In this document: positions 23,723 through 54,999 of the stretch, one piece after another
How the letters are laid out: the number at the start of each line of letters is the position of its first letter
How positions within the stretch are numbered: the first letter of the stretch is position 1
Notes under the pieces: model-generated
Databases searched by the model: none
What the model was told of the DNA's origin: nothing
What the model saw: only the letters and a program-made list of their open reading frames with translations
Position numbers and translations under genes: made by a program
Assembly: GCA_046754465.1 (NCBI GenBank)
Contig: JBHHVU010000010.1
Coordinates: 15,067-79,066, forward strand
Length of the DNA stretch: 64,000 nt
Origin: Nitrospinaceae bacterium
Lineage (GTDB): Bacteria > Nitrospinota > Nitrospinia > Nitrospinales > VA-1
Direction: 5' to 3'

Positions 23723-24343
23723 TCAATCCCCTTTCTGGGTGGAGGAGGCCTCGTTCGATGAGGAATCGGCTTGCGCCGGTTCGGAAACGTCCTTTTTTCC
23801 CTCCGCCGGAGTTTTCTTTTGCTGGCCGAAGACCTGGGCGATTATTTCGTTAATGATATCGGGTCCCAGCAGGTTGTAAACGGCGTTTGCCGATTTGAAG
23901 TGCGGGCTGGTGAAAAGACTGAGAACTTTCTTGCTGGTGTATCCCAGCATCATGAACTCGTGGGCATAATTTTCCGCGACCAGCCGCAGGGTGCTGTCAT
24001 CGGCATCCTCATCCCCCGTGGGCGGTCCGGCGTCGGAATGGCTGTCGGTCTGGATTTCGTACACGTAGATCAAATGCCAGCCGAATTCGGTTTTGACGGG
24101 TCCCACCACTTCCCCCTCCTGGGCGGTGAAAGCGGCCACTTCGAAGGGCCGGACCATGGAGCCTTTCCCGAACCATCCCAAATCTCCCCCGCGTTTTTTG
24201 GAAGGGCATTCGCTAAACTCTTCCGCGAGCTTTGAGAAATCCTCCCCTTCATCGATCTTCTTTTTCAATTCATCGGCCAGTTCCTTGGTGCCGACCAGGA
24301 TATGCCTTGCTTGAACCTTTTTTACTTTTTTATCTGTTGTCAT
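23723..24343 (-). CDS. Parvulin-type PPIase fused to an uncharacterised C-terminal domain
   Basis: ARHILV, FSECPS..RGGDLGWF, PFEVAAF, PVKTEFGWHLI; extra AENYAHEFMMLGY...LFTSPHF domain. Confidence 0.92.
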   Translation of the reverse strand: MTTDKKVKKVQARHILVGTKELADELKKKIDEGEDFSKLAEEFSECPSKKRGGDLGWFGKGSMVRPFEVAAFTAQEGEVVGPVKTEFGWHLIYVYEIQTDSHSDAGPPTGDEDADDSTLRLVAENYAHEFMMLGYTSKKVLSLFTSPHFKSANAVYNLLGPDIINEIIAQVFGQQKKTPAEGKKDVSEPAQADSSSNEASSTQKGD

Positions 24344-24500
24344 TCCTTTTACCCGCTTTCTAAAATGAAGATCATTGCGCGTTACCGGGGAACCCGGGAG
24401 GCACTCCAGGAGGCGGCCGCGAATGGATTGGATTGAGTTTGCCGTGGAAATCTCCCGAAAGGCCCGGAACCGGGCGGGCGGAGCGTCTGATTTTTGTATT

Positions 24501-25289
24501 TCAGTTCAATTTCAACGCACAGCATTTTTTGTATTTTTTCCCCGAACCGCAGGGACACACATCGTTGGGTTTAATTTTCCCATGAGCGATTTTTGTTTCG
24601 GCGGGCACCTTTAAAAGTTCCTGCCCGATTTTCTTGGCCTGTTTGTATCGTACCTTGAGCCGGTTGTACAGATCGGGAATGCAATGGTTGATCGCTATCA
24701 CCATATCATTTTTTTCGGGGTCGAGCTTGGCATCTTCCTCGGCCCTTAGTTTCTCATTGAAGAAATACGTATACGAGAAAATGGGAGGCTGTTTGTTGCT
24801 GTCCAGTTCAAATTTATAAAACACCAAATGGAGATCCCGGTTGTCGTTCCGCGGGTCGAGATCATAGGAATCTTCGGCGAAATATTTTTGATCGTTACAG
24901 GTGAAGTCGAGCGTTTCCTGGTTGCGGGGGAACATCTCGATATAATTGACATACTTCCCGGGCTCGAACATGAGATAGGACATGGGGTTTTTCTCCCCAT
25001 AGGCCTTGGCTTCAAAATAACGTTGCTTGAAAAGCAGGAGCAATTCGTCCGGAATGTTTTTTGCGAAATTCTTGATGATTTCAGACTGAACATTGGACCA
25101 TTTTGGCGCATTGGGGAGAGGATTATGAGTTTTGTTGAAATTCAGCAGAAAAACAAAACGGTTGTTATCGTTATCCTTGTCGCAGAACGATACCGTCACG
25201 TGTTTGCAATCGCAGAACGGGTTCGTGCAGTAATAATCTTCAAGGATATAGGTGTTCCTGTAATCCTCTTCCTCAAAACGATACGTCAT
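24501..25289 (-). CDS. SEC-C motif protein
   Basis: C-terminal PNDVCPCGSGKKYKKCC; N-terminal YCTNPFCDC. Confidence 0.9.
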   Translation of the reverse strand: MTYRFEEEDYRNTYILEDYYCTNPFCDCKHVTVSFCDKDNDNNRFVFLLNFNKTHNPLPNAPKWSNVQSEIIKNFAKNIPDELLLLFKQRYFEAKAYGEKNPMSYLMFEPGKYVNYIEMFPRNQETLDFTCNDQKYFAEDSYDLDPRNDNRDLHLVFYKFELDSNKQPPIFSYTYFFNEKLRAEEDAKLDPEKNDMVIAINHCIPDLYNRLKVRYKQAKKIGQELLKVPAETKIAHGKIKPNDVCPCGSGKKYKKCCALKLN

Positions 25290-25384
25290 GATGGACGAAA
25301 AACATTCCTGATGATTGATGACCGCGTACGATTCGATGGCCAGCCTCCTTTCCTCTGCTAAACGAATGTGTTCACGGACTGGGT

Positions 25385-25870
25385 TTAACTCGTATACCGT
25401 CCCGAGGACAAACCTCCCTTGAACCGGGTCGGGGGAGGGGCTTCCCCACTGAGATTCCGCACCGCCCGGACCGAATCTTTGGTGATTCCTTCTTTATTGG
25501 ATAAATCACCGTGACCGTATCGGTAATAAAAAACCGCGGCCGTGCTGTGGGGCCTTTCGATACTGGTCCAGGAAGTGAACCCGCCGCCGGGTGAAAAATG
25601 CGAATCCAGGTGAATTTCGATCCGGTCCATATCCCGCAACGGAAAGTCCTCATCGTATAGGCTTTCCGCCTCCTCCAGGGTAGGGAGGCGCCAGTTGGTG
25701 TACCCCGCGAATTTTTTGATATTCAATTCACGGATATACTCGCTTGCGTCGTACCAGTTCATCCATTTGCTGGTATCCTGAAAGGAATCGGTCTGTTTCC
25801 ACATCAATTGGGTTTCATGATCAGTCACGGTACCGTCCCCATTATCAACGAACCTGTTTTTTGAATCCAA
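25385..25870 (-). CDS. DUF1566 (Lcl C-terminal) domain protein 1
   Basis: FVDNGDGTVTD..TQLMW, FAGYTNWRLPT, WTS, VRAVR; TTG start. Confidence 0.9.
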   Translation of the reverse strand: MDSKNRFVDNGDGTVTDHETQLMWKQTDSFQDTSKWMNWYDASEYIRELNIKKFAGYTNWRLPTLEEAESLYDEDFPLRDMDRIEIHLDSHFSPGGGFTSWTSIERPHSTAAVFYYRYGHGDLSNKEGITKDSVRAVRNLSGEAPPPTRFKGGLSSGRYTS

Positions 25871-25963
25871 TTTCCGCCCTTTCTTCCCAATAAATTAAAA
25901 CCCCGGAGGAAAATAATTCCTTCCCTGTTCAATTAGGGAATCCTGCTGATGGAAACGAATCCG

Positions 25964-26437
25964 TCATATCAGCCCGTCCTCCTTTTCAATGTCCCGAACC
26001 AGACGGGTGGAACCCCGCGAGGTTCGATAGATGTCGTCATGAATCTGGTGTCCTTTTCGGTAACCGAATCGGATGGCCTGGATTTTATTGCGGACCGTGC
26101 TGGTCCAGCAAAGGAATCCGAATCCCGGCTCGAAAATACTGACGTGGCGCACCACCTGACCCATGTGATCCTTGTTTTCCTGGTTTTTGTCAAAAAGACT
26201 TCTGGCCTCGTCGGCGGTAGGCATGCGCCAGCCCTGGAATCCGGCATATTGTTTCTTATTAAATTCCTCGGAAAATTCCCGGGCCTGGACCCAGTTCATC
26301 CACTTGCCGGTCAATTGCCAAGTGTCTTTCTTGAGCCAGAGCAGGCGTTTGACAGTATCGATGACGGTATCGTTCCTGCCCTCTAAGAATCGGGCACCTT
26401 TATTTATCTTTGAGGAGGCCGGGTTGGTATTATTCAT
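25964..26437 (-). CDS. DUF1566 domain protein 2
   Basis: TVIDT...LLW, YAGFQGWRMPT, CWTS, TRLVR. Confidence 0.88.
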   Translation of the reverse strand: MNNTNPASSKINKGARFLEGRNDTVIDTVKRLLWLKKDTWQLTGKWMNWVQAREFSEEFNKKQYAGFQGWRMPTADEARSLFDKNQENKDHMGQVVRHVSIFEPGFGFLCWTSTVRNKIQAIRFGYRKGHQIHDDIYRTSRGSTRLVRDIEKEDGLI

Positions 26438-26509
26438 GGACCTATCGATCTGGAAAAAACATTGTTTAAAAAATCCCGATCCCTTCTGGCCGGTATCCCT
26501 TGGCGAAAA

Positions 26510-27388
26510 TCATTCCTTAAGGGTTCGCACCGGACGGACCCCGTGACTTCTCAGCCCCTGTTTATTCCACTTGTAATCCCCATTATAAAAGTGAAACCGC
26601 ATGGCCAGGGTTTTATCGGTTTTATTGAGGGTTTTGGTCCAGCAAGTGAGACCGCATCCCGGGGGAAATCCCTTGACGATGAAAACGGTATCGCCATATT
26701 TGTCGGTAACTGGGTTTGAGGGGTCATAAAGCATTTGTGCTTCCTTGCGGGTGGGCATTCGCCAGTCGCTGTAATTCGCGAACCGTTCCTTGTTCAATTC
26801 CACCAAGTACATTTTGGCTTCCTGCCAAGTCACCCACTTGTCCTTGTCAATATAGGAATCGGTGGCTTTCCACATCAATTTGGCGACGTGGTCGGTCACC
26901 GTTCCATCCTCGTTGTCGACGAAGCGTTCGATGCCCTCGTCACCCGAATCCTTTACATTTTTTCTAACGAGGCGGACCGCGCTGGGGAACCCGTCGTTTT
27001 CCTTGGCCAGCCAAAACTCGTAATTCGACCCGTAATAGAAACCCAATGCCGCGTTGGCGCCGCGGGGTTAACTGGTCCAGGTGGGATACCCCCACCCCGA
27101 TGGAAAGATGGAATTGAGGTGAATCTCCATCCCCTGAACATCCGTATTCGTGGCCTGGGGGTCGTACAGCGATTTGGCTTCCGAGGCCGTGGGGATCCGC
27201 CAATTATGGTATCCCGCGAACTTTTTTTCATTTATTTTTTTGGAATACTCAAGGCTCTCGTGCCAGGTGATCAGTCTCCCCAACTCGATCCAGGTGTCTT
27301 TTTTAATCCACATGAGATCATGTTTCAGGTCGGTGATGGTTCCATCGCCGTTGTCAACGAATTCGGATTGTTTGGTTTTTGTATCCAT
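26510..27388 (-). pseudogene. Two-domain DUF1566 protein 3 interrupted by an in-frame TAA at 27068-27070
   Basis: ORFs 27068-27388 and 26510-27046 share a frame (879 nt = 293 codons); reads ...YPTWTS*PRGANAALGFYY...AVRLVR then a second complete domain. Confidence 0.85.
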
Positions 27389-27413
27389 CAGGCTCGATTC
27401 AAGTTCTCAGTAA

Positions 27414-27899
27414 TTACCGGCGCACCGGCGGACGGGTATGGTCTCTTTTGACGGGGTCCTTCCGGCACAGTCTCACCGCGCCGAAACTGTATTCATCCGC
27501 CGTGGTGGTCGTTCCATCCATGAATTCGAAACGGGGACGCCGCGTGGAGGTGTCTCCCATGAGCCAGCTGAATTTGAAGGCTCCCTCGGGAAACAGGGGA
27601 TCAATATGAATGGCCGCGCCGCCCTTCGCGGTATTTTCAAGATTTTCGTCATAAAGAGTGACTGCGTCATTGAATGTGGGCAGCCGCCAGTCATTGAATC
27701 CGCCGATCTTCCGCATGTTTTTGTTGTCCGCGTAATCCCGCGCCTCATGCCAGTTGAAGAATTTTCCTTTATCCTGCCAGGAATCCTTTTTCAGCCAGAA
27801 AATCCGAGTTTGATTGTCGAATATGACGTGGGGTCCCTTTTCCACGAAGCGTTTGGGTTTTGTGTCTTGTTCCTGGATTTGGGGAAGTTTTTCGTTCAT
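27414..27899 (-). CDS. DUF1566 domain protein 4
   Basis: FNWHEARDY, GGFNDWRLPT, IHIDPLF, AVRLCR. Confidence 0.88.
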   Translation of the reverse strand: MNEKLPQIQEQDTKPKRFVEKGPHVIFDNQTRIFWLKKDSWQDKGKFFNWHEARDYADNKNMRKIGGFNDWRLPTFNDAVTLYDENLENTAKGGAAIHIDPLFPEGAFKFSWLMGDTSTRRPRFEFMDGTTTTADEYSFGAVRLCRKDPVKRDHTRPPVRR

Positions 27900-28022
27900 T
27901 ATGGACCTTCACCTCCAACTGGTTTGGATAAAATCCTTTCCGGAATTCCCGCGTGCCAAAGACTCCCGGAAAAGAAATGAAATGGGTTTCCTCCCTGCAA
28001 GGAGGGTTTCCCGCTAGAAAAT

Positions 28023-28241
28023 TTATTCGGGGGCATAACCGATTTCTACATTTCCCTCATCCACTTCCACAATTACGGGAACAACATACTGGCCGTTGGA
28101 ATATTCCAGCAGTTTCTTGAGGCCGTGCGGGTTGGCATCCACATTAATGTAAATGAAGGATTTATTCTGCCTTAAGAAATCTTCTCGCGCCTTTTTGGTG
28201 TGCGGACAATTGTCCTTACCAAAAATTATGTAATGACTCAT
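28023..28241 (-). CDS. Glutaredoxin-like protein (CxxT; resembles Uxx-star family)
   Basis: IIFGKDNCPHTKKARE, YINV, cis-Pro motif VVPVIV. Confidence 0.8.
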   Translation of the reverse strand: MSHYIIFGKDNCPHTKKAREDFLRQNKSFIYINVDANPHGLKKLLEYSNGQYVVPVIVEVDEGNVEIGYAPE

Positions 28242-28295
28242 AGTCGTTTTTGGGGACAAAAGGGATCAAATCCTCGATGCATCCGTTCCCGTGCC

Positions 28296-28928
28296 TCACC
28301 GTGCGAATTTTTTCGATTTATCACGCCATTCCGGTTCCCACTCGTCCTTCACTTCATCCCGGACGACGCGGACGTGGGAGTATTCATTGTCCTTATGTTC
28401 CCAGACATCGGTTCCCGTCACGTAACTGAACTTAAGGGCATATTGCTGGTAGTCCGGTTTTTCATCATAGGTCCAGGTATTGTGTCCCTGGCCCGAATCG
28501 AAAATGGAGTCGATATGGATTTCAGCGCCGTCCTTATCGTAATTGCTCTTGGTGAAGGAGAAGAGGGTTTTCGCGTCCTCGAAACTGGCAAGCCGCCAAT
28601 CGTCATAGCCGGCAAAGTTTTTTTCATTCAGCGACTCGCAATAATCGTGAGCCTCGAACCAATTGATGCCATAACCGAATTCTCCGTAGGAGTCCGATTT
28701 TTTCCACATCAGGTTATTTCGGGGGTCGCTGATCGTGCCGTTTCCATTATCGACAAGGGTGGGAACTTCTTCTTCAGCCAGGGCCTCCTCGTCTTCTTCC
28801 AACCACTCTTCTTCCCCGATCCATTCTTCCCCGGCGTACTCCTCCTCATCTTCCTGATGGCTGGGGTTTTTCTCTTCGGTTTTTTCTTCGTTGAGTTTCT
28901 GTTCGTTGAGTTTTTTTTCGTCGGACAT
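28296..28928 (-). CDS. DUF1566 domain protein 5 with acidic N-terminal extension
   Basis: About 54 aa Glu-rich leader then LVDNGNGTISD...LMW, FAGYDDWRL, VRVVR. Confidence 0.9.
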   Translation of the reverse strand: MSDEKKLNEQKLNEEKTEEKNPSHQEDEEEYAGEEWIGEEEWLEEDEEALAEEEVPTLVDNGNGTISDPRNNLMWKKSDSYGEFGYGINWFEAHDYCESLNEKNFAGYDDWRLASFEDAKTLFSFTKSNYDKDGAEIHIDSIFDSGQGHNTWTYDEKPDYQQYALKFSYVTGTDVWEHKDNEYSHVRVVRDEVKDEWEPEWRDKSKKFAR

Positions 28929-29026
28929 GGTTTTTACCTATAACTTATCAAAGGTCCAAATGGGTTTCCGTGATATCCCGGATGAAGGATCCGGTGAAAT
29001 TATTGATCCGAAGGGCAGTCTCTTTT

Positions 29027-29467
29027 TCATATGTCGCGTACCAGCCGGGCCGATGTCCCCGTGGTCGATACGCTTTGTTCGACACAAACCTCCCGCTTGA
29101 TTGGAAAATAACTCTTCCAGGCATAGGAATCGAACCGTGTTTCACAAGTCCAGAGACTGGTTTCCCCTCCCGCCTGGTAGTTGGCCACCCGTCGCGAAGG
29201 TTTCTTGGGTTGCTTTAAAAAAATTTCCCGGTATGCATCCTGGTCCCGGAACAAGGAACGCACTTCGCTTTTGGTGGGAAGCCTCCAATTGTCATATCCC
29301 AAATATTTCTGTTCGTTGCAGGCTTTGACGAAGGCATTGGCCTCATCCCAATTGAGCCATTTTGCCAGTTCCTGGCGGGAGTCCTTGATAGCCCACTGCA
29401 AATCTTCCTCGGTGTCAGTTACCGTACCATCACCGTTGATAATAAAATGTTTGACTGTCTCTGGCAA
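29027..29467 (-). CDS. DUF1566 domain protein 6
   Basis: NGDGTVTDTEEDLQW, YLGYDNWRLPT, LWT, ARLVR; TTG start. Confidence 0.88.
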   Translation of the reverse strand: MPETVKHFIINGDGTVTDTEEDLQWAIKDSRQELAKWLNWDEANAFVKACNEQKYLGYDNWRLPTKSEVRSLFRDQDAYREIFLKQPKKPSRRVANYQAGGETSLWTCETRFDSYAWKSYFPIKREVCVEQSVSTTGTSARLVRDI

Positions 29468-29875
29468 GGCAAACCCTTTTTTTTCGAATACGAAGGAAAA
29501 TAAAAAAACACTCTATTCTTTGCGTTCATTCATTCCGGATGAAAACCATCTTGCTCCAACAATATACCTTTGGCGCAATCATCTGGAACAGGCCAAACAT
29601 AATTGAATGAAATGAAGAACTAAAGTGTTCTCAATCCTGGACAATAGTATTGTACTGGGTCAGGGGATTTAATTTCAATAAGGTAACACCAGGAGGGTAA
29701 ATTTTCAAGCCAAATTCAAGAGAAAAGAAAACCCGGAAACCCGTTTGCCCGGTGCGGAAAGGCATTCTCCGGGCTCCCGTTCAATTCTTCCATTGCGGAA
29801 GGGGGATGGAAAAAACAAAAAGGGCATGTTAGGAAACAGTCCCAATATCTGAATACCGGTTTGGGGAAGGTGCGG

Positions 29876-30370
29876 TCAACGCCACCCGCCTCCCTGAACA
29901 ACCCGGTCCCGGACGGCCGGCGGATTTTCCAACTTGATGGAAGGGTTCAAGGTGCCCCGGACCAGACGCACACTGGTGTTCAGAAGGTCTCCAGCTTCCT
30001 TGTGCCCCCCGGACCCGCTGTTGAATGAATAAACATACGCGGTAATTTTGCCGCGGGTGTTGCTGGTCCAGGTATCGTATCCACATCCCGGTCCAAAAAC
30101 GGGGTCGATGTGGATATCCATTTCGTATTTATCTTGCAAAGCTTTATTTTTATCAAACAGGGTATGGGCCTCCTTCTTGTCGGGAAGCCGCCAGTCCGTA
30201 TATCCCGCGAATGCTTCCTTATTTTTTTGATCCCTGAATTTGATGGCTTGGGCATGAGTTAAAAATTTTTTCAAATCCAGATAGGAGTCATTTTTGGCCC
30301 ACATCAGATGGGTCAGACTGTCGGTAATCGTGCCATCCCCGTTATCGATGAATCGTTGCCCGTCGGTCAT
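29876..30370 (-). CDS. DUF1566 domain protein 7
   Basis: AAGGAGGT RBS before ATG 30370; FIDNGDGTITD..THLMW, FAGYTDWRLP, TWTS, VRLVR. Confidence 0.9.
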   Translation of the reverse strand: MTDGQRFIDNGDGTITDSLTHLMWAKNDSYLDLKKFLTHAQAIKFRDQKNKEAFAGYTDWRLPDKKEAHTLFDKNKALQDKYEMDIHIDPVFGPGCGYDTWTSNTRGKITAYVYSFNSGSGGHKEAGDLLNTSVRLVRGTLNPSIKLENPPAVRDRVVQGGGWR

Positions 30371-30422
30371 GCAAAAGACCTCCTTGTTTTTCGGTGGCAT
30401 CCAGGTGTTTCAAAGAAAGCGG

Positions 30423-30455
30423 AAAAAAAAACCGGGAGGCAAGAGCCTCCCGGTT
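30423..30455 (-). terminator. Rho-independent terminator
   Basis: AACCGGGAGGC-aaga-GCCTCCCGGTT with an A-run on + (U-tract on -), just after gene 30477-30965. Confidence 0.85.
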
Positions 30456-30476
30456 AAAATTCATGCAACCAAGCAA

Positions 30477-30965
30477 TTACCTTTGACTTTCAGGCTTCTC
30501 TCCAGTCACACCAGCGATTCCCCTTTCCGTACCTTCGGGCATACCAAAACCCGGCTCGATGTACGTAAAGGGTTTAACATGGTCCAGATGATAATTGGTC
30601 TGGTAGGTTTTTCCGGAACCGGCATCCATTCTCCAGTCGTGGCGATCGTATCGCTGTCGCTGGCAATTCACGGAAATGAGGCCGGGACCTTTATTGGTAA
30701 TGATAGATTTTTGGGCAATGGCGTTGGTCTCGTATCCACCCGGAGGCAAAGTCGCCTTAAAAATCTTTTTCCACGCGTAAGCGAAGGGACCGATATCGAA
30801 CTCAATATTGGTGTCCTGGGTTTCACTCAGGTTGTAAGCGATCCACGATGCATTTTCACAGATTGCTTTGCCGCCCGGCGAAACTTCCACCACGTTGGCG
30901 CTGGCGATGGCGATAAAACCAAAAAATACAAATATAGTGGTTAAACTGGCAGCCGTCCTTCTCAT
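30477..30965 (-). CDS. Secreted hypothetical protein
   Basis: Sec signal ending ASA; GGGGGAG RBS; own promoter and terminator. Confidence 0.8.
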   Translation of the reverse strand: MRRTAASLTTIFVFFGFIAIASANVVEVSPGGKAICENASWIAYNLSETQDTNIEFDIGPFAYAWKKIFKATLPPGGYETNAIAQKSIITNKGPGLISVNCQRQRYDRHDWRMDAGSGKTYQTNYHLDHVKPFTYIEPGFGMPEGTERGIAGVTGEKPESQR

Positions 30966-31159
30966 GTGCTCCCCCTTTCCAAAAAAAGCGGAATTAAACA
31001 GGATAAAATCAAGTCAAACAAGAACTCCTAGTTTCGAATACCACCTCCCGTCGGCATTTCCAATTCTCTAATTTATTCAAAAAGATTCCAAAAGTAAAGA
31101 ATCAATATTTCTGACGGATTTATCCCTTCCAATTTACATTGGCTTTTTAGAGTCGCCCG

Positions 31160-31188
31160 AAAATAACAAACCCTTTACGAGAAGTCAA
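31160..31188 (-). promoter_or_regulatory. Sigma70 promoter candidate for 30965
   Basis: Minus strand TTGACT-17 nt-TATTTT with extended TG. Confidence 0.5.
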
Positions 31189-31286
31189 GATTTAAATTAA
31201 GGGGGAAACCCCTTTCAGGATAATCCTTTAAAAAAGAAAAAGTTAAAATAAAAAAACTTCCCGGGCGGTGATGCCGGTTCCAGACT

Positions 31287-31682
31287 TTATCTTTTGAATT
31301 TTAAGGAGGTCAGGTTCATCAGGTTCAGGGAGTTCCTCAACAGCTTTTCTCCGTCTTCGGTGATATCGTTGACCACGAGCTGAATACTCCGCAAGTTCTT
31401 TAAATACTTGGCGTTGGAAAGATGGCGGGCCCCCTCGTCGCCGATTCCGTTGGACGCCAGATTCAGGGTACGCAAATTGGAGAAAATCGGCGCTTCGGTG
31501 AGGGCGCGGACTCCATCGTCACCAATGCTGTTTTGCGACAAGTCCAGGGCCTGGAGACTGTGGAGGCATTCCACCTTTGCCAGGGCGCGAACTCCAACTT
31601 CCCGGATAAACTTGGCTTTCAAGCTCAAGACTTGTCCATCGCTACTCAGATTTTGCCTGACGAGTTCTTCGATATCCGCCAT
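31287..31682 (-). CDS. Small leucine-rich repeat protein (RI/GALA-like LRR)
   Basis: LQALDLSQNSIGDDGVRAL / LRTLNLASNGIGDEGARHL / LRSIQLVVNDITEDG. Confidence 0.9.
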   Translation of the reverse strand: MADIEELVRQNLSSDGQVLSLKAKFIREVGVRALAKVECLHSLQALDLSQNSIGDDGVRALTEAPIFSNLRTLNLASNGIGDEGARHLSNAKYLKNLRSIQLVVNDITEDGEKLLRNSLNLMNLTSLKFKR

Positions 31683-31734
31683 TTTGGTTTCCTAATGGAA
31701 AAAAAATTTACCCATGGATTTGTCCTACCGGAAG

Positions 31735-32568
31735 TTATCCGATCCCCGGAATGTCCTTGGCCTCGAATCCGTATTCATCGAAGGCTTTCCAACCCTCCTG
31801 AAGCATTTTTTTGGCGTACTTTACCATCAGGACGGCTTGCGAATGATTGGGATCGATGTCCAGGGTTTTTTTCAAATGCCGCAGGGCATTTTTGACATCC
31901 TTGATTTCATCTCCATAATGCTCGATTTGCCGGGATTTGTCGATGAGGTCTGAAGCCCATTTGTAATACGTGTCAGCGATTTGCCGGGGCGCGTTCTTAC
32001 TGACAAATTCCACAATTTCGTCATCGGCCTTCAACCGGTCCAAATCCTGGATCGCCGCCTCAAATTCCTGAATGGGAATTTCGTAATCCTCCCCGTTGAC
32101 TTGGGTGATGGTGTCACCCGCCTTGTGGGCGGAATGCAGTCCCACCGAGCTGCGCACCACCGTTCCCTGGATGCCGGCGATCAACTGGTTATAATGGAGG
32201 TTGCCGATGGCGAAATGAATAATGGAACTGAACTCCTTGTTGTTATCATATTTTAAAGCCAATTCGAATTCCGCCTTGGCTTCGTCATGTTGTTCCAGTT
32301 CCTCCAGCGCTTCGCCCAGGTTGTAGTGATGAACGCAGTTTTCCGGTTCTTCCTCGATCTGGTCGCGGAAAAACTCGATTTGGGCATCAAGGTCGAAATC
32401 GCCTTCTTCCTCCTCCTCTTCCTCGAACCCGGTTTCCTGGTCCAGCGCTTCCCCAGTGTCCGGTTCGGGTTCTCCGCCGGGCGGCCCGGCAATCCCGGGA
32501 TCTAATGCTTCCGCCGCCGAATCCTCTTCCTCGGGGGGGAGGTCATCCTTTTTTTCTTCTGGGTTCAT
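31735..32568 (-). CDS. TPR protein with acidic N-terminus
   Basis: HYNLGEAL...AKAEFELALKYD; LKKTLDIDPNH; poly-Glu leader. Confidence 0.85.
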   Translation of the reverse strand: MNPEEKKDDLPPEEEDSAAEALDPGIAGPPGGEPEPDTGEALDQETGFEEEEEEEGDFDLDAQIEFFRDQIEEEPENCVHHYNLGEALEELEQHDEAKAEFELALKYDNNKEFSSIIHFAIGNLHYNQLIAGIQGTVVRSSVGLHSAHKAGDTITQVNGEDYEIPIQEFEAAIQDLDRLKADDEIVEFVSKNAPRQIADTYYKWASDLIDKSRQIEHYGDEIKDVKNALRHLKKTLDIDPNHSQAVLMVKYAKKMLQEGWKAFDEYGFEAKDIPGIG

Positions 32569-32668
32569 GGTCCGCCGATAAGCAATGTTTTTAATTCACC
32601 GAAAGGGTATTTTGAAATTTTACCAGACCTTCCACCCTCTCAGTGAAAAAAACTCTTGCTGGGTCCCC

Positions 32669-33292
32669 TCATTTTTTTTCAGCCGCTTCCCGGTTGGAGT
32701 GGATGAATCTCACCGCGCGGATGACCGACAGGGACAGACCGGGACCTTCCTTGGGACTGGGATAAGCTTTTCCGCGGATGAAGTTGAAGGTCCACGCGTA
32801 AATGTCCTTATGGGTTTCACTGGTCCAGAAGCAGCAACTGGTGTATCCGAAAATGGGATCGATGTGCAACTTATTGGTGGTCCAATAATAATCCCAGGGG
32901 ATGCTTTTGCTCTCGTCATACAAGGTCTTCAGCTCTTTCCGGGTGGGGAGCCTCCAGTCGTCGTGTCCGGCGAAATGGCTTCCATTGATTTTATTTATGT
33001 AGTCGTGGGCCATTTTCCAGTTGAGCCATTGTTTGAGTTCCTGATAGGAATCCTGCTGTTTCCACATCAATCCTTCCTTCAAATCGGTCACCGTTCCATC
33101 CTTGTTGTCTTGAAACCGGGGATCGTTGGAAGGTTCCAGCACCTTTTTAGGCTCGGTCAGGGAACGGATCTGGCCTCCGAAAATGGGGTCTTTCCCCTGG
33201 CCCTCGCCCGCCGCCCAGGAAATCCCCATCGGGACCATGGGGAGGAATGATAAGCAAACCGAAATAATGACAACCTGGACACTGATTTTCAT
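32669..33292 (-). CDS. DUF1566 domain protein 8, with signal peptide
   Basis: MKISVQVVIISVCLSFLPMVPMGISWA signal; FQDNKDGTVTD...LMW, FAGHDDWRLPT, FWTSE, IRAVR. Confidence 0.9.
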   Translation of the reverse strand: MKISVQVVIISVCLSFLPMVPMGISWAAGEGQGKDPIFGGQIRSLTEPKKVLEPSNDPRFQDNKDGTVTDLKEGLMWKQQDSYQELKQWLNWKMAHDYINKINGSHFAGHDDWRLPTRKELKTLYDESKSIPWDYYWTTNKLHIDPIFGYTSCCFWTSETHKDIYAWTFNFIRGKAYPSPKEGPGLSLSVIRAVRFIHSNREAAEKK

Positions 33293-33326
33293 TTCAAGTC
33301 CCTTGCGGATGGTAAACCCGACACTC

Positions 33327-34343
33327 TTAATTCTCCTGTGGCGCCCAGTCTGGCTCCCACGAAAGGCACAAACCGGCTGGGTTGTGGAACTGACCGGTTT
33401 CTTTTCCAATGATACCCCAGGTGGAAACAAAGTTCATTTCCGGATCGAACTTTTGTATTCTCTGGTTGATGGTATCGACCACGAATACGTATCCGTAAGG
33501 GTCCTCCACCACCGCCATGGGACAGTTGAACTGTCCCTCCCGCTTGCCCATTTCACCCATCACGCCCAAGGATTTTCCCTCACGGGTGAAGATCTGCAGG
33601 CGGTTCTGACTTTTTTCGGCCACCAGGATCGTGCCGTCCTTGCGGACGGTCAAACCCGTAGGGAAATTCAGCCTTCCGGCCTCGAACCCGTATTCCCCGA
33701 ACTTGGCAACAAACTGGCCGTCTTCATTAAAAACCTGGATCCTCTGGTTGTCCCGGTCTGCAACGTAGATATTTCCTTCCTTATCCAAAGCGATTCCCGT
33801 GGGAAACTTGAGGAAGCCGTCGAAATCCCCCGCGAAACCGAAGCTCAGAAGGAAATCCCCATCATCGTCGTAGCGTTTGACGCAATGGTTGGAGGTATCG
33901 GCGACAAGAATGGTGCCCGTCGGTTCCGCGAGAATGGCTTCGGGCCAGTAAAACTTTTCTTGTCCCCAGCCCTCGCCGCCGAATTCGTGAAGGAAGTCTC
34001 CATCGGGATCGAATTTCTGGATTCGGTGGCAGCCCGTATCGGCCACCCAGATGTTTCCGTTGTAATCCACCGCCACCGACCCCGGGGTTTTGAACTCGCC
34101 CGGATTGTATGGGGGCCGCGTTCCGCCCGGGCGGCCAAAGGCAAAAAGAAATTTGCCATTTCCGTCAAACTTTTGAATGCGATCGTTGCCCGTATCGGCG
34201 ACCCACACATACAATTTGGAGTGGTCGACTTCGATCTTTTCCGGGAGTTCTTCAGGGAGGATCTCCGTTTCAACCACTTCGAGGGCCTGGGACTCCTCCA
34301 TCTCCGTTTGGTCCGCGGTTTCGTCTTGATTCTCTTTAGACAT
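33327..34343 (-). CDS. NHL-repeat beta-propeller protein with acidic leader
   Basis: Six VAD..N.RIQ.F..DG.F...FG-type repeats. Confidence 0.93.
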   Translation of the reverse strand: MSKENQDETADQTEMEESQALEVVETEILPEELPEKIEVDHSKLYVWVADTGNDRIQKFDGNGKFLFAFGRPGGTRPPYNPGEFKTPGSVAVDYNGNIWVADTGCHRIQKFDPDGDFLHEFGGEGWGQEKFYWPEAILAEPTGTILVADTSNHCVKRYDDDGDFLLSFGFAGDFDGFLKFPTGIALDKEGNIYVADRDNQRIQVFNEDGQFVAKFGEYGFEAGRLNFPTGLTVRKDGTILVAEKSQNRLQIFTREGKSLGVMGEMGKREGQFNCPMAVVEDPYGYVFVVDTINQRIQKFDPEMNFVSTWGIIGKETGQFHNPAGLCLSWEPDWAPQEN

Positions 34344-34673
34344 GGGACTCCATCAAAAGGGTGAAAGGTTCCCCTTCATAAAATTCCAGCGAAAAGGTTC
34401 ATCGAATCCGGGGCTACCCGGAGTGCGATGTCCGGCAAACGCAACTATTTGGGATAAGACCCCTCCCGGACTTTTTCGCCGGGAAAATTTTTTGGGTAAA
34501 GTGACGGGACTCAACCATGAAAAATGGCCAAGGCGGGAATTCCGGCTGAAAGCAACCGGCCGATTCCCAAGGGGGACCGCCCTGAACACCACGGGGGTTG
34601 GATATTAAATTATTGGGGAAAACCCTGACGGTTTTTTCCGCGCCCAAGCATTTTCCACGGCTTATCCGCACTT

Positions 34674-35285
34674 TTATTTGATCATGAACCCTTTGCAGTC
34701 AAGAATCTGGTATTCATAATCACAGGCTTTTTGCAGTTCCCCCAATCTTTCGTTCCAATTCTCCCTGAAATTGTCGAGGTTTTCCGATTTCGGTTTTTTC
34801 TTCATCAGACCCACCTCTTTGATCAGGGGTTTCACAAGATTTTTGTGAATCAACTGGAGCGTGTTTCGCAGTTTCAGAATACATTCCTTAGTGACCGTTT
34901 CGCGGGTCACCCCATCCACTTTTTCCAGAAGCCGGAGAAAAGATTGAATGGTTGTCAGCTGCGACGTATAACTTTCGGCCAACTTATGGTTGTATTTCAA
35001 TCCGCAGTCAATGTAAGCGGGCATCAACCACATGCCCACGTGGTGATCGAACTTGACGGAGAGGGTGATCAATTTCTGGAGGTAATCTACCTCCCTCAGA
35101 TCTTCCTCCTCCTCCTCCTCCCCTTCCTCGAGCTCTTGGGCGGCTTTTTCCTTTTCTTTCTGAAGCTCCAACTTGATTTTTTCGAGTTCACTCAGATCGG
35201 AAAGAGAATCGGCATCCGTCTTTTCGCTCTTGGCGGGGTCCTGATTTTCTTCTTCCTTTTTGGTTTCAGTATCCTGGTCGCTCAA
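34674..35285 (-). CDS. Hypothetical helical protein with poly-Glu N-terminal region
   Basis: AGGAG RBS, TTG start, EEGEEEEEEDL tract; downstream of a near-consensus promoter. Confidence 0.8.
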   Translation of the reverse strand: MSDQDTETKKEEENQDPAKSEKTDADSLSDLSELEKIKLELQKEKEKAAQELEEGEEEEEEDLREVDYLQKLITLSVKFDHHVGMWLMPAYIDCGLKYNHKLAESYTSQLTTIQSFLRLLEKVDGVTRETVTKECILKLRNTLQLIHKNLVKPLIKEVGLMKKKPKSENLDNFRENWNERLGELQKACDYEYQILDCKGFMIK

Positions 35286-35363
35286 AGGACAATCTCCTAT
35301 AAAACGCTGGTAATTAAAACAATATTTTCAATGTATTGCAGTTGCTTTTTGGGATTGGAAACA

Positions 35364-35392
35364 AGTATAGTCCTTTCATAACGGGGTGTCAA
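35364..35392 (-). promoter_or_regulatory. Near-consensus sigma70 promoter facing the minus-strand cluster
   Basis: Minus strand TTGACA-17 nt-TATACT. Confidence 0.75.
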
Positions 35393-35492
35393 GGTCTTAC
35401 CCCTCCGATTTTCAAGACGTTCGGCCCGAAAGGGGGCGGGATTTTCCAGGCCGGCCCCATGCCCCTAACACAGGCAGACGGGAAACGGTTCG

Positions 35493-35522
35493 TTGACAGG
35501 AGAATTGGTGGGGGTATATCCT
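35493..35522 (+). promoter_or_regulatory. Sigma70 promoter candidate for the radical SAM gene
   Basis: TTGACA-18 nt-TATCCT. Confidence 0.5.
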
Positions 35523-53713: not shown

Positions 53714-54214
53714 TCAACGTTGTTCGATCCGGACCTCGGTCATCTCGATCCGTTCATTCGGATTATCCCGGGAATCCCTGGGAAGGTTTACAATTTTATC
53801 CGCCACATCCATTCCCTGGACTACTTTCCCAAAGACGGTGTACTGTCCATCCAGGAAAAAAGAATCTTTGACCACGATAAAAAACTGGGAACCCGCGCTG
53901 TCCGGGTCCTGCGCGCGCGCCATCGACAGGATGCCCCGTTCGTGGGGGATGTCGTTGAATTCCGCTTTGATGGTGTAGCCGGGTCCCCCCATTCCGTGGG
54001 ACGATTTGTCCTCGCTTTTGGAATTTGGGTCTCCGCCCTGGATCATAAAGCCGGGAATAACCCTGTGGAAGGTGGTCCCGTTGAAATACCCTTTTTTCGC
54101 GAGGTCCTTGAAATTTTTCACATGCCCGGGCGCCTTGTCCTCGAAAAATGAGATTTCGATGGTTCCCATGGTCGTATCCAGGATGGCGATATCCTCACCT
54201 TGTGCATCTGACAT
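53714..54214 (-). CDS. Cyclophilin-type PPIase (cytoplasmic)
   Basis: FHRVIPGFMIQGGDP, SMAR, SAGSQFFI, LDGQYTVFG. Confidence 0.96.
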   Translation of the reverse strand: MSDAQGEDIAILDTTMGTIEISFFEDKAPGHVKNFKDLAKKGYFNGTTFHRVIPGFMIQGGDPNSKSEDKSSHGMGGPGYTIKAEFNDIPHERGILSMARAQDPDSAGSQFFIVVKDSFFLDGQYTVFGKVVQGMDVADKIVNLPRDSRDNPNERIEMTEVRIEQR

Positions 54215-54450
54215 AAAATTGTATCTCCTCTTTTAATTTTGGCCTCGAGGCCAAAAATTTGGGTGGATGCCTTAGGGATTTTTCATGGTTCCCCGATATT
54301 TTTCCGCAAGACCCGTCCGTGGGTTCCCCAAACGGTAAAACCTTACCGGTTAACTTATCATCTTCTCAAAGATGAATTCAAACCCATGAGGGATGGAAAG
54401 TCCCTTTGGGGTCTCAGGAATGGTTTTCTTCAATCTTGACGGATCCAGGC

Positions 54451-54999
54451 CTATCGATTTTCGATCCGGACCTCCTTCATCACTATTTTTTCAATGGGGT
54501 TGTCTCGGGCGTCCCTGGGGACGCTGACGATTTTATCCGCCACATCCATCCCCTGGATCACCTTTCCGAAAACCGTATACTTTCCATCCAGGAACCGGGC
54601 GTCCTTGACCACGATGAAAAATTGCGACCCCGCGCTATCCGGGTTGCTGGACCGGGCCATGGAGACGATCCCCCGCTTGTGCGGAATCTCATTGAATTCC
54701 GCCTTGATGGAGTAACCGGGACCTCCCGTGCCATGCAGGGCCCGGTTATCGCCTCTGGAATTTGGGTCCCCTCCCTGGATCATGAATCCGGGGATGACGC
54801 GGTGGAAGGTGGTTCCATTATAAAAACCTTTTTTTGCCAGGTCCTTGAAATTTTTCACATGACCCGGCGCTTTATCCTCGAAAAAGGAAATTTCAATGGT
54901 TCCCAGGGCCGTTTCAATGACGGCGATTTCTTCGGCCTGCGCCGAACCCCATGCCAAAAATACTGCCAGCAAAGCAGCTAATCCGCTTCGATAAACCAT
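54451..54999 (-). CDS. Cyclophilin-type PPIase (signal peptide, periplasmic)
   Basis: Same motifs; MVYRSGLAALLAVFLAWGSAQA signal; GAGG RBS before ATG 54999. Confidence 0.95.
   Translation of the reverse strand: MVYRSGLAALLAVFLAWGSAQAEEIAVIETALGTIEISFFEDKAPGHVKNFKDLAKKGFYNGTTFHRVIPGFMIQGGDPNSRGDNRALHGTGGPGYSIKAEFNEIPHKRGIVSMARSSNPDSAGSQFFIVVKDARFLDGKYTVFGKVIQGMDVADKIVSVPRDARDNPIEKIVMKEVRIENR

Follow-up and report, generated by a model that had tools for sequence, protein, structure and literature searches.

To our knowledge, the Lcl_C domain (PF07603, formerly DUF1566) is known only from surface adhesins and from surface proteins diversified by diversity-generating retroelements (DGRs). The founding member of the family is the C-terminal domain of Legionella pneumophila Lcl (PDB 8q4e), a secreted, surface-bound trimeric adhesin that carries a collagen-like stalk and binds sulfated glycosaminoglycans. 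The portions of the structural report used here describe this C-terminal domain as a trimer, suggest that DUF1566 may promote trimer formation, and describe the domain as free of the EPN/QPD and WND carbohydrate- and calcium-binding motifs of C-type lectins (PMC11162425). The same domain is found in the canonical exported DUF1566/Fib_succ_major type, which is marked by a lipoprotein signal or signal peptide and a conserved Cys pair and includes the Lsa25-type adhesins of Leptospira.

Here we describe an array of Lcl_C genes at positions 25385-33292 of a 64,000-nucleotide stretch of DNA (hereafter the window) from a Nitrospinaceae bacterium (assembly GCA_046754465.1, contig JBHHVU010000010.1). 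In contrast to Lcl, the array proteins are free-standing domains of 140-210 amino acids that are mostly leaderless, and none of the array open reading frames (ORFs) contains a collagen-like repeat; their domain is that of the canonical exported type, and they match Lsa25 weakly in NCBIfam. Full-text literature searches on DUF1566 and Nitrospina, with the papers judged by title or opening of the abstract and supplementary genome and proteome tables outside their scope, returned no description of the array. We read its genes, with a probability of about 0.6, as encoding cytoplasmic, non-enzymatic recognition modules with distinct conserved ligands, which would form an old, fixed, order-wide set plus one exported member.

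An array of nine domains and its orthologues

The array comprises nine PF07603 domains in eight genes, all on the minus strand, and each of the nine stretches scores between 46.7 and 84.8 bits against a Pfam cut-off of 34.9. We numbered the domains d1 to d9 in transcription order on the minus strand:

d1, 32669..33292, minus strand: exported Lcl_C gene with a signal-peptide-like start, MKISVQVVIISVCLSFLPMVPMGISWAAG; Pfam 84.8 bits
d2, 29876..30400, minus strand: leaderless Lcl_C gene, longest ORF 174 amino acids; Pfam 68.2 bits
d3, 29027..29467, minus strand: leaderless Lcl_C gene of 146 amino acids with a TTG start; Pfam 61.5 bits; its own clade in the tree (support 100)
d4, 28296..28928, minus strand: leaderless Lcl_C gene of 210 amino acids with an acidic N-terminal extension; Pfam 69.8 bits
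d5, 27414..27899, minus strand: leaderless, basic Lcl_C gene of 161 amino acids; Pfam 46.7 bits
d6-d7, 26510..27388, minus strand: a single two-domain Lcl_C gene of about 292 amino acids, with d6 at 27068-27388 and d7 at 26510-27046
d8, 25964..26437, minus strand: leaderless, basic Lcl_C gene of 157 amino acids; Pfam 66.1 bits; its own clade in the tree (support 99)
d9, 25385..25870, minus strand: leaderless, single-domain Lcl_C gene of 161 amino acids with a TTG start, MDSKNRFVDNGDGT

The genes are co-oriented and closely spaced, their base composition and GC content are unremarkable, and the other copies share 34-42% identity with d9. Translation of d2 probably begins at its second ATG (30370), which is preceded by AAGGAGG and gives a protein of 164 amino acids, against orthologue lengths of 164-165. 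The d4 extension (28776-28928) consists of about 50 very acidic residues in which an E-W-(I/L/V)-G-E/D-E/D-E/D-W motif recurs, and it is found in 11/11 orthologues. Within d5, an insertion reading W-LMGD-T stands where the others read WT, and the last strand reads VRLCR.

The initial annotation had counted eight genes, which is right, the ninth ORF arising from an in-frame TAA at 27068-27070. Domains d6 and d7 lie in the same frame and are separated by this TAA plus seven codons. Contigs of four DNA runs, all from one sample of one study and two of them possibly the assembly's own source, differ from the window by ten substitutions that fall within 62 bp (27031-27092), one of which, 27070 A>C, makes the TAA a GAA. 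Applying the ten substitutions removes the stop and changes nine residues, all nine of which then equal the residue found in ten orthologues. With the orthologous protein as query, 69 of the order's 71 genomes (the own genome and 68 of 70 relatives) yielded the two-domain gene, and the internal stop is confined to the own genome. Because the contigs of the four runs read GAA and the changed residues match the orthologues, we judge the TAA to be a mistake introduced locally into the genome record during assembly or polishing. Two other readings of this site were ruled out: selenocysteine insertion or other recoding, given that the codon is TAA rather than TGA and that the contigs read GAA, and decay of d6/d7 into a pseudogene, given the same GAA and the intact gene in the other genomes with a match.

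In all ten relatives compared, which belong to two (f1 and f2) of the four families sampled, the array consists of these eight genes in unchanged order, and the two-domain gene is intact. A maximum-likelihood tree of 99 domains places each of the nine positions in a clade of its own with support of 99-100 in the Shimodaira-Hasegawa-like approximate likelihood ratio test (SH-aLRT), from a quick search under LG+G4, whose deeper nodes linking long branches should not be relied on. The genome as a whole holds 26 Lcl_C domains in 25 genes, and the array is their largest cluster. At 3.3 Mb, the genome devotes about one gene in every 120 to this family, and two thirds of these genes look cytoplasmic from their sequences. 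For all but one of the 26 domains, a complete genome of another family holds the reciprocal best hit, with identities of 54-75%; the next paralogue, in those cases where it is a separate gene, reaches 32-49% (with d3, d4 and d5 the second match listed is the same gene again, from an overlapping locus). The earlier proposal of a fixed panel thus holds in gene order (10/10 relatives), in the nine clades and in the reciprocal best hits (25/26).

Across 41 genomes sampled in the order, the own genome included, the number of Lcl_C matches ranges from 13 to 28 each. A first look at other orders of the class gave 0-12 candidates, with 24 in one case, and a search with the array profile revealed two genomes of one other order with 7-8 copies that mostly belong to this subtype (94-133 bits), and three genomes with distant copies only (at most 62 bits). 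A look-up in the ESM Atlas returned Lcl_C clusters only, the commonest phylum among them being Nitrospinota, and the nearest database relative that carries a name, at 76% identity, is labelled Nitrospinaceae. Taken as a whole, the comparisons strongly support the array as an old, fixed, core-genome set in one order of Nitrospinota.

The 17 dispersed paralogues of the genome occur one by one next to housekeeping genes, and no partner gene recurs beside them, in neighbourhoods where our ORF picking missed the Lcl_C ORF itself in 2 of the 17 loci. One of the paralogues (L020:4000-5049, plus strand, contig C24 of the own genome, G000) is a fusion that runs from a response-regulator receiver through a predicted membrane-spanning stretch to an Lcl_C domain; it adjoins a hybrid histidine kinase and an HDOD protein, and its reciprocal best hit was recovered from a different family within the order. 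Another (L021:3983-6390, minus strand, contig C6 of the same genome) is an exported paralogue with four cysteines that adjoins genes with a molybdopterin oxidoreductase domain and an FGE-sulfatase domain.

Leaders, motifs and the cysteine pair

To place the array proteins in the cell we relied on closed reading frames and hydropathy in 11 genomes (the own genome and ten relatives), with leader calls made by a hydropathy scan plus inspection. The results agree with the earlier description of seven leaderless genes and one exported member at 32669-33292. Upstream starts that might supply signal peptides were looked for and none was found: in each of the seven genes a stop codon lies 3-24 codons 5' of the first possible start (ATG, GTG or TTG), which leaves no room for a hydrophobic leader ahead of the domain. 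Only d1 among the array genes has a signal-peptide-like leader (start MKISVQVVIISV...), and the d1 position reaches a 12-residue Kyte-Doolittle maximum of 2.5-3.1 in 11/11 genomes, while the eight other positions stay at or below 1.54 before the domain, the higher of these values coming from over-long ORF calls. Genome-wide, the 25 Lcl_C genes divide into 16 that are leaderless, 8 with a leader or membrane anchor and 1 that is ambiguous, such that d1 is the one exported member within the array, as had been claimed, but is joined elsewhere in the genome by at least seven more exported or membrane-anchored paralogues. We infer from the absence of Sec-type leaders that the products of the seven genes (eight domains) probably stay in the cytoplasm.

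The shared scaffold of the domains is marked by the motifs TVTD..LMW..D, DWRLP, WT and VR.VR. The initial annotation had assigned two shared signatures to most copies, which holds more loosely than stated: W.K.D[ST] occurs in 5/9 domains and W...D[ST] in 9/9, whereas the full [IL]H[IL]D..F..G.G...WT occurs in 3/9, its half F..G.G...WT in 6/9, and WT itself in 8/9. The helix motifs are those that it had listed (ASEYI, AREFS, SLEYS, AKMYL, ARDYA, ANAFV, AIKFR, AHDYI and AHDYC), as are the terminal strands, and a helix Cys occurs in d4 (AHDYC) only.

The absence of the Cys pair YC...RCVR had been taken as an adaptation to the cytoplasm, and this interpretation is not supported. The pair occurs in none of the nine array domains and in none of the 26 domains of the genome, including those of the eight genes with hydrophobic leaders or anchors. 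Because exported copies lack the pair as well, its loss belongs to the lineage and not to the cytoplasmic copies. The parts of the Lcl report that we draw on describe the solved Legionella domain as lacking disulfide bonds (PMC11162425), and its terminal strand in 8q4e reads VRAVR. That the pair is the usual state of the family holds as a habit of the best-scoring copies in other orders of the class. These canonical copies (L011-L016) score 109-128 Pfam bits, against 87 for the best copy of the own genome, and among the seven genes fetched YC...RCVR is present in 6/7 and a hydrophobic N-terminus, judged by eye, in 6/7, whereas the array has no pair in its nine domains and no leader in seven of its eight genes. 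Along the same lines, a DGR survey, in the portion we cite, gives the related Fib_succ_major proteins lipoprotein signals and conserved cysteines (PMC5758913). The habit is not universal, however. The 150 best database representatives, a sample biased to the query profile and to giant multi-repeat proteins, hold 736 domain instances, of which 325 cover both positions: 87 have both Cys, 60 have one and 178 have none. Copies without the pair are therefore the majority in that biased sample, which goes part of the way towards making them the family norm, and the Lcl domain is a further case.

Other cysteines are kept copy by copy. A vicinal Cys-Cys right before WT (SCCFWT) is kept in at least 9 of 11 d1 orthologues, d3 orthologues retain two Cys in at least 9 of 11 cases, and a single Cys is kept within the orthologue groups of d2, d3, d5, d6 and d8, with none kept in d4, d7 and d9. 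In the alignment of the nine array domains no Cys or His is invariant; the invariant D, N and R residues, in d9 numbering, are D17, D28, N50, R61, R135 and R138.

Fold, conserved segment and predicted binding

The assignment of a C-type-lectin-like (CLec) fold made earlier was borne out by modelling. An AlphaFold2 model of d9, built from a 78-row alignment, has a mean predicted local distance difference test (pLDDT) of 88.6 and a predicted template-modelling score (pTM) of 0.81. Foldseek returned no match for it at E 0.001 or better; the Lcl C-terminal domain tops its ranking (E 3.8e-3), ahead of EgtB, LOX-1 and Bd2740. VIA-align against 48,161 chains gave best matches that include the DGR-diversified TvpA (2y3c) and Mtd (1yu0), and after the best ones came many C-type lectin domains. 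A sequence search of the PDB with d9 alone gave no match at E up to 1, and a search with the profile gave 8q4e only, a weak similarity at E 0.011. The model thus gives d9 the C-type-lectin-like fold of the solved member, the Lcl C-terminal domain.

The copies differ most in the segment between WT and the last strand, as had been noticed at the outset, and the segment is conserved within orthologue groups. Over its roughly 31 well-filled columns, identity is 17% between paralogues and 72% within orthologue groups, compared with 37% and 65% for the rest of the domain, which makes it both the most divergent part between copies and the best conserved part within groups. In the two-domain protein, most of the residues that are invariant among 33 orthologues sit in the d6 post-WT segment. 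Charge follows a similar division, with domain isoelectric points that range from 4.5 (d4) to 9.3 (group mean of d8), differing between paralogues and kept within groups. Judged from sequence comparison, this is how distinct binding surfaces should look when purifying selection acts on them, the opposite of a region driven by an arms race or by a DGR.

Because the segment is specific to each paralogue and held constant by selection, each copy should bind its own conserved partner. In the mechanism that we propose, a common scaffold would present a paralogue-specific C-terminal segment of about 30 residues, and each copy would bind through it an endogenous partner inside the cell, which may be a protein, a glycan-like compound or an anionic ligand; d1 and the other exported paralogues may perform the same role in the periplasm or on the surface.

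Several points weigh against this reading. Location was read from the missing Sec-type leaders, and the proteins may be exported without one; the nearest characterised relatives, Lcl, the Leptospira Lsa25-type adhesins and the DGR target LdtA, are all surface proteins in the parts of the two reports cited (PMC11162425, PMC5758913). The invariant D, N and R residues could serve catalysis or the binding of metals instead of structure. The segment may also take more than one form: the model of the two-domain protein (pLDDT 74.2, pTM 0.57) is poor in the d6 segment (under pLDDT 50), and residues 107-134 of the two-domain orthologue at L034:1498-2379 (minus strand), which are near-invariant in the 33 orthologues, are modelled partly as helix where d9 has beta-strands, so that the d6 segment need not resemble the beta-sheet surface modelled in d9.

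Neighbouring genes, rival explanations and known systems

Genes of other families lie inside the array:

28023..28259, minus strand: glutaredoxin-like gene between d5 and d4, at most 78 amino acids, motif CPHT; Pfam Glutaredoxin 34.4 bits against a cut-off of 22.9
30477..32568, minus strand: three non-Lcl_C genes in the d1-d2 interval, encoding a 162-amino-acid protein with a hydrophobic leader (no family), a 131-amino-acid leucine-rich-repeat (LRR) protein and a 277-amino-acid tetratricopeptide-repeat (TPR) protein with an acidic N-terminus

The glutaredoxin-like gene is leaderless, carries CPHT instead of CxxC, and occupies the same place in 10/10 relatives as CP[HY]T; the three genes between d2 and d1 likewise keep their order in 10/10. 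Downstream of d9 on the same strand follow a 262-amino-acid protein that ends in a SEC-C metal-binding motif (24501-25289), for which PADLOC gave weak SEC-C-motif matches only, and a parvulin-type prolyl isomerase (23723-24343), both syntenic in 10/10. More widely, the flanking genes for serA, the parvulin, the SEC-C protein, the LRR, TPR and NHL proteins and a 203-amino-acid protein are syntenic in 9-10 of 10 relatives. The TPR (31735-32568), NHL (33327-34343) and 203-amino-acid (34674-35285) proteins have acidic low-complexity N-termini, comparable to that of d4. The embedded glutaredoxin-like gene and the downstream SEC-C and parvulin genes hint at a link to thiol or folding biology.

Between the leader-bearing 162-amino-acid gene and d2 lies a strong terminator-like hairpin (30430-30455, minus strand; 11 pairs, 8 of them G-C, followed by a T run), which suggests that d2-d9 are transcribed apart from the upstream genes. 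Promoter-like and terminator-like sites as a whole do not exceed the shuffled expectation (13 versus 9.8 +/- 2.5, and 16 versus 17.2 +/- 4.7). The 408-bp gap between d3 and d2 (29468-29875), whose length in relatives is about 176-526 bp, holds no minus-strand ORF of 62 or more amino acids and no Rfam match, and an Rfam scan of 24000-35500 gave no match at E up to 0.1.

Some of these observations bear on other explanations of the array. The leaderless proteins might still leave the cytoplasm by a signal-free route (vesicles, lysis, or a system of type I or resembling type VI) to serve as adhesins on the surface or outside the cell, a suggestion that draws on the surface location of all characterised relatives in the sources cited above (PMC11162425, PMC5758913) and on the fact that the same genome exports at least eight paralogues, d1 included. 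We consider this unlikely: there is no conserved C-terminal tail, the columns past the last strand having a within-group conservation of 0.38-0.6; the array encloses a glutaredoxin gene of cytoplasmic type and has leaderless TPR and NHL genes on its flanks; and the exported or leaderless state is constant at each position in 11/11 genomes. Improbable to a similar degree is a thiol- or redox-linked handling of clients, in which the lectin-fold proteins would bind Cys-bearing clients or low-molecular-weight thiols, in the manner of FGE and EgtB, together with the CPHT glutaredoxin-like, SEC-C and parvulin proteins. The glutaredoxin-like gene inside the array in 11/11 genomes, the syntenic SEC-C and parvulin genes downstream, the single Cys kept in groups d2, d3, d5, d6 and d8, and the presence of EgtB and FGE among the structural neighbours all favour it, but no Cys is common to all paralogues (d4, d7 and d9 keep none), the nine array stretches have no match to the FGE-sulfatase family (PF03781) at E up to 0.01, and synteny is high throughout the region, which makes adjacency weak evidence.

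The paralogues may alternatively be subunits of a homo- or hetero-oligomeric structural or scaffolding assembly, with the variable segments as interfaces between subunits and not as ligand sites. The trimer formed by the Lcl domain and the suggestion, in the part of that report used here, that DUF1566 promotes trimer formation (PMC11162425) fit such an assembly, as do the permanent fusion of two domains in d6-d7 and the co-oriented, closely spaced genes; nothing direct speaks against it, and we regard it as rather unlikely. Scarcely credible, on the other hand, is that the array consists of DGR targets or their relics, or forms a phage-defence island, with the variable segment as the product of diversification. 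DGR variable regions do commonly overlap DUF1566 domains in the portion of the survey cited (PMC5758913), and TvpA and Mtd are among the structural neighbours of the d9 model. However, the post-WT segment is the best conserved part of the domain within orthologue groups, which argues against diversification. A DGR origin was rejected, as the 97%-complete genome has no match to the reverse transcriptase family RVT_1 (PF00078) and the window has no template/variable-region repeat, its direct repeats being confined to 53.7-54.9 kb; a defence island was rejected as well, PADLOC returning 0 families for all nine Lcl_C ORFs. The direct repeats themselves (53718-54942) comprise a 281-nt and a 194-nt family (75-81% identity, spacing 737) and point to a tandem pair of diverged paralogous genes unrelated to the array.

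Returning to cytoplasmic recognition as the preferred reading, one can extend it to a broader but doubtful proposal: that what we take to be the order containing Nitrospina possesses an intracellular recognition system of about 16 leaderless lectin-fold adaptors, each devoted to one endogenous client or metabolite and fixed before the families split, which would operate jointly with the CPHT glutaredoxin-like, SEC-C and parvulin proteins in a client-specific network for assembly, folding or thiol control. If true, this system would be the cytoplasmic, germ-line counterpart of the ligand panels that DGRs make on CLec scaffolds. About 25 distinct and strictly conserved binding surfaces would imply about 25 distinct conserved partners, in a set whose copies are individually maintained throughout an order of marine nitrite oxidisers of global importance, and identifying those partners could reveal an unrecognised layer of intracellular recognition or of the assembly of the nitrite-oxidising machinery.

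The CLec-like domains of FGE, EgtB and PvdO come from cytoplasmic or periplasmic enzymes, have roughly double the size and bind both metals and thiol substrates, whereas the array domains have no shared Cys or His. The variable proteins of DGRs (TvpA, Mtd and Legionella LdtA) have the CLec fold too, but the diversity of the array is instead fixed in the germ line as old paralogues, and its members would be a natural source of stable CLec scaffolds, fixed in specificity, against which those that DGRs generate could be compared. Relative to the characterised members, Lcl, the Lsa25-type adhesins and the DGR targets, the array stands apart in being leaderless and free-standing, and in belonging to a panel of about 25 copies, fixed in the germ line, that its order conserves throughout.

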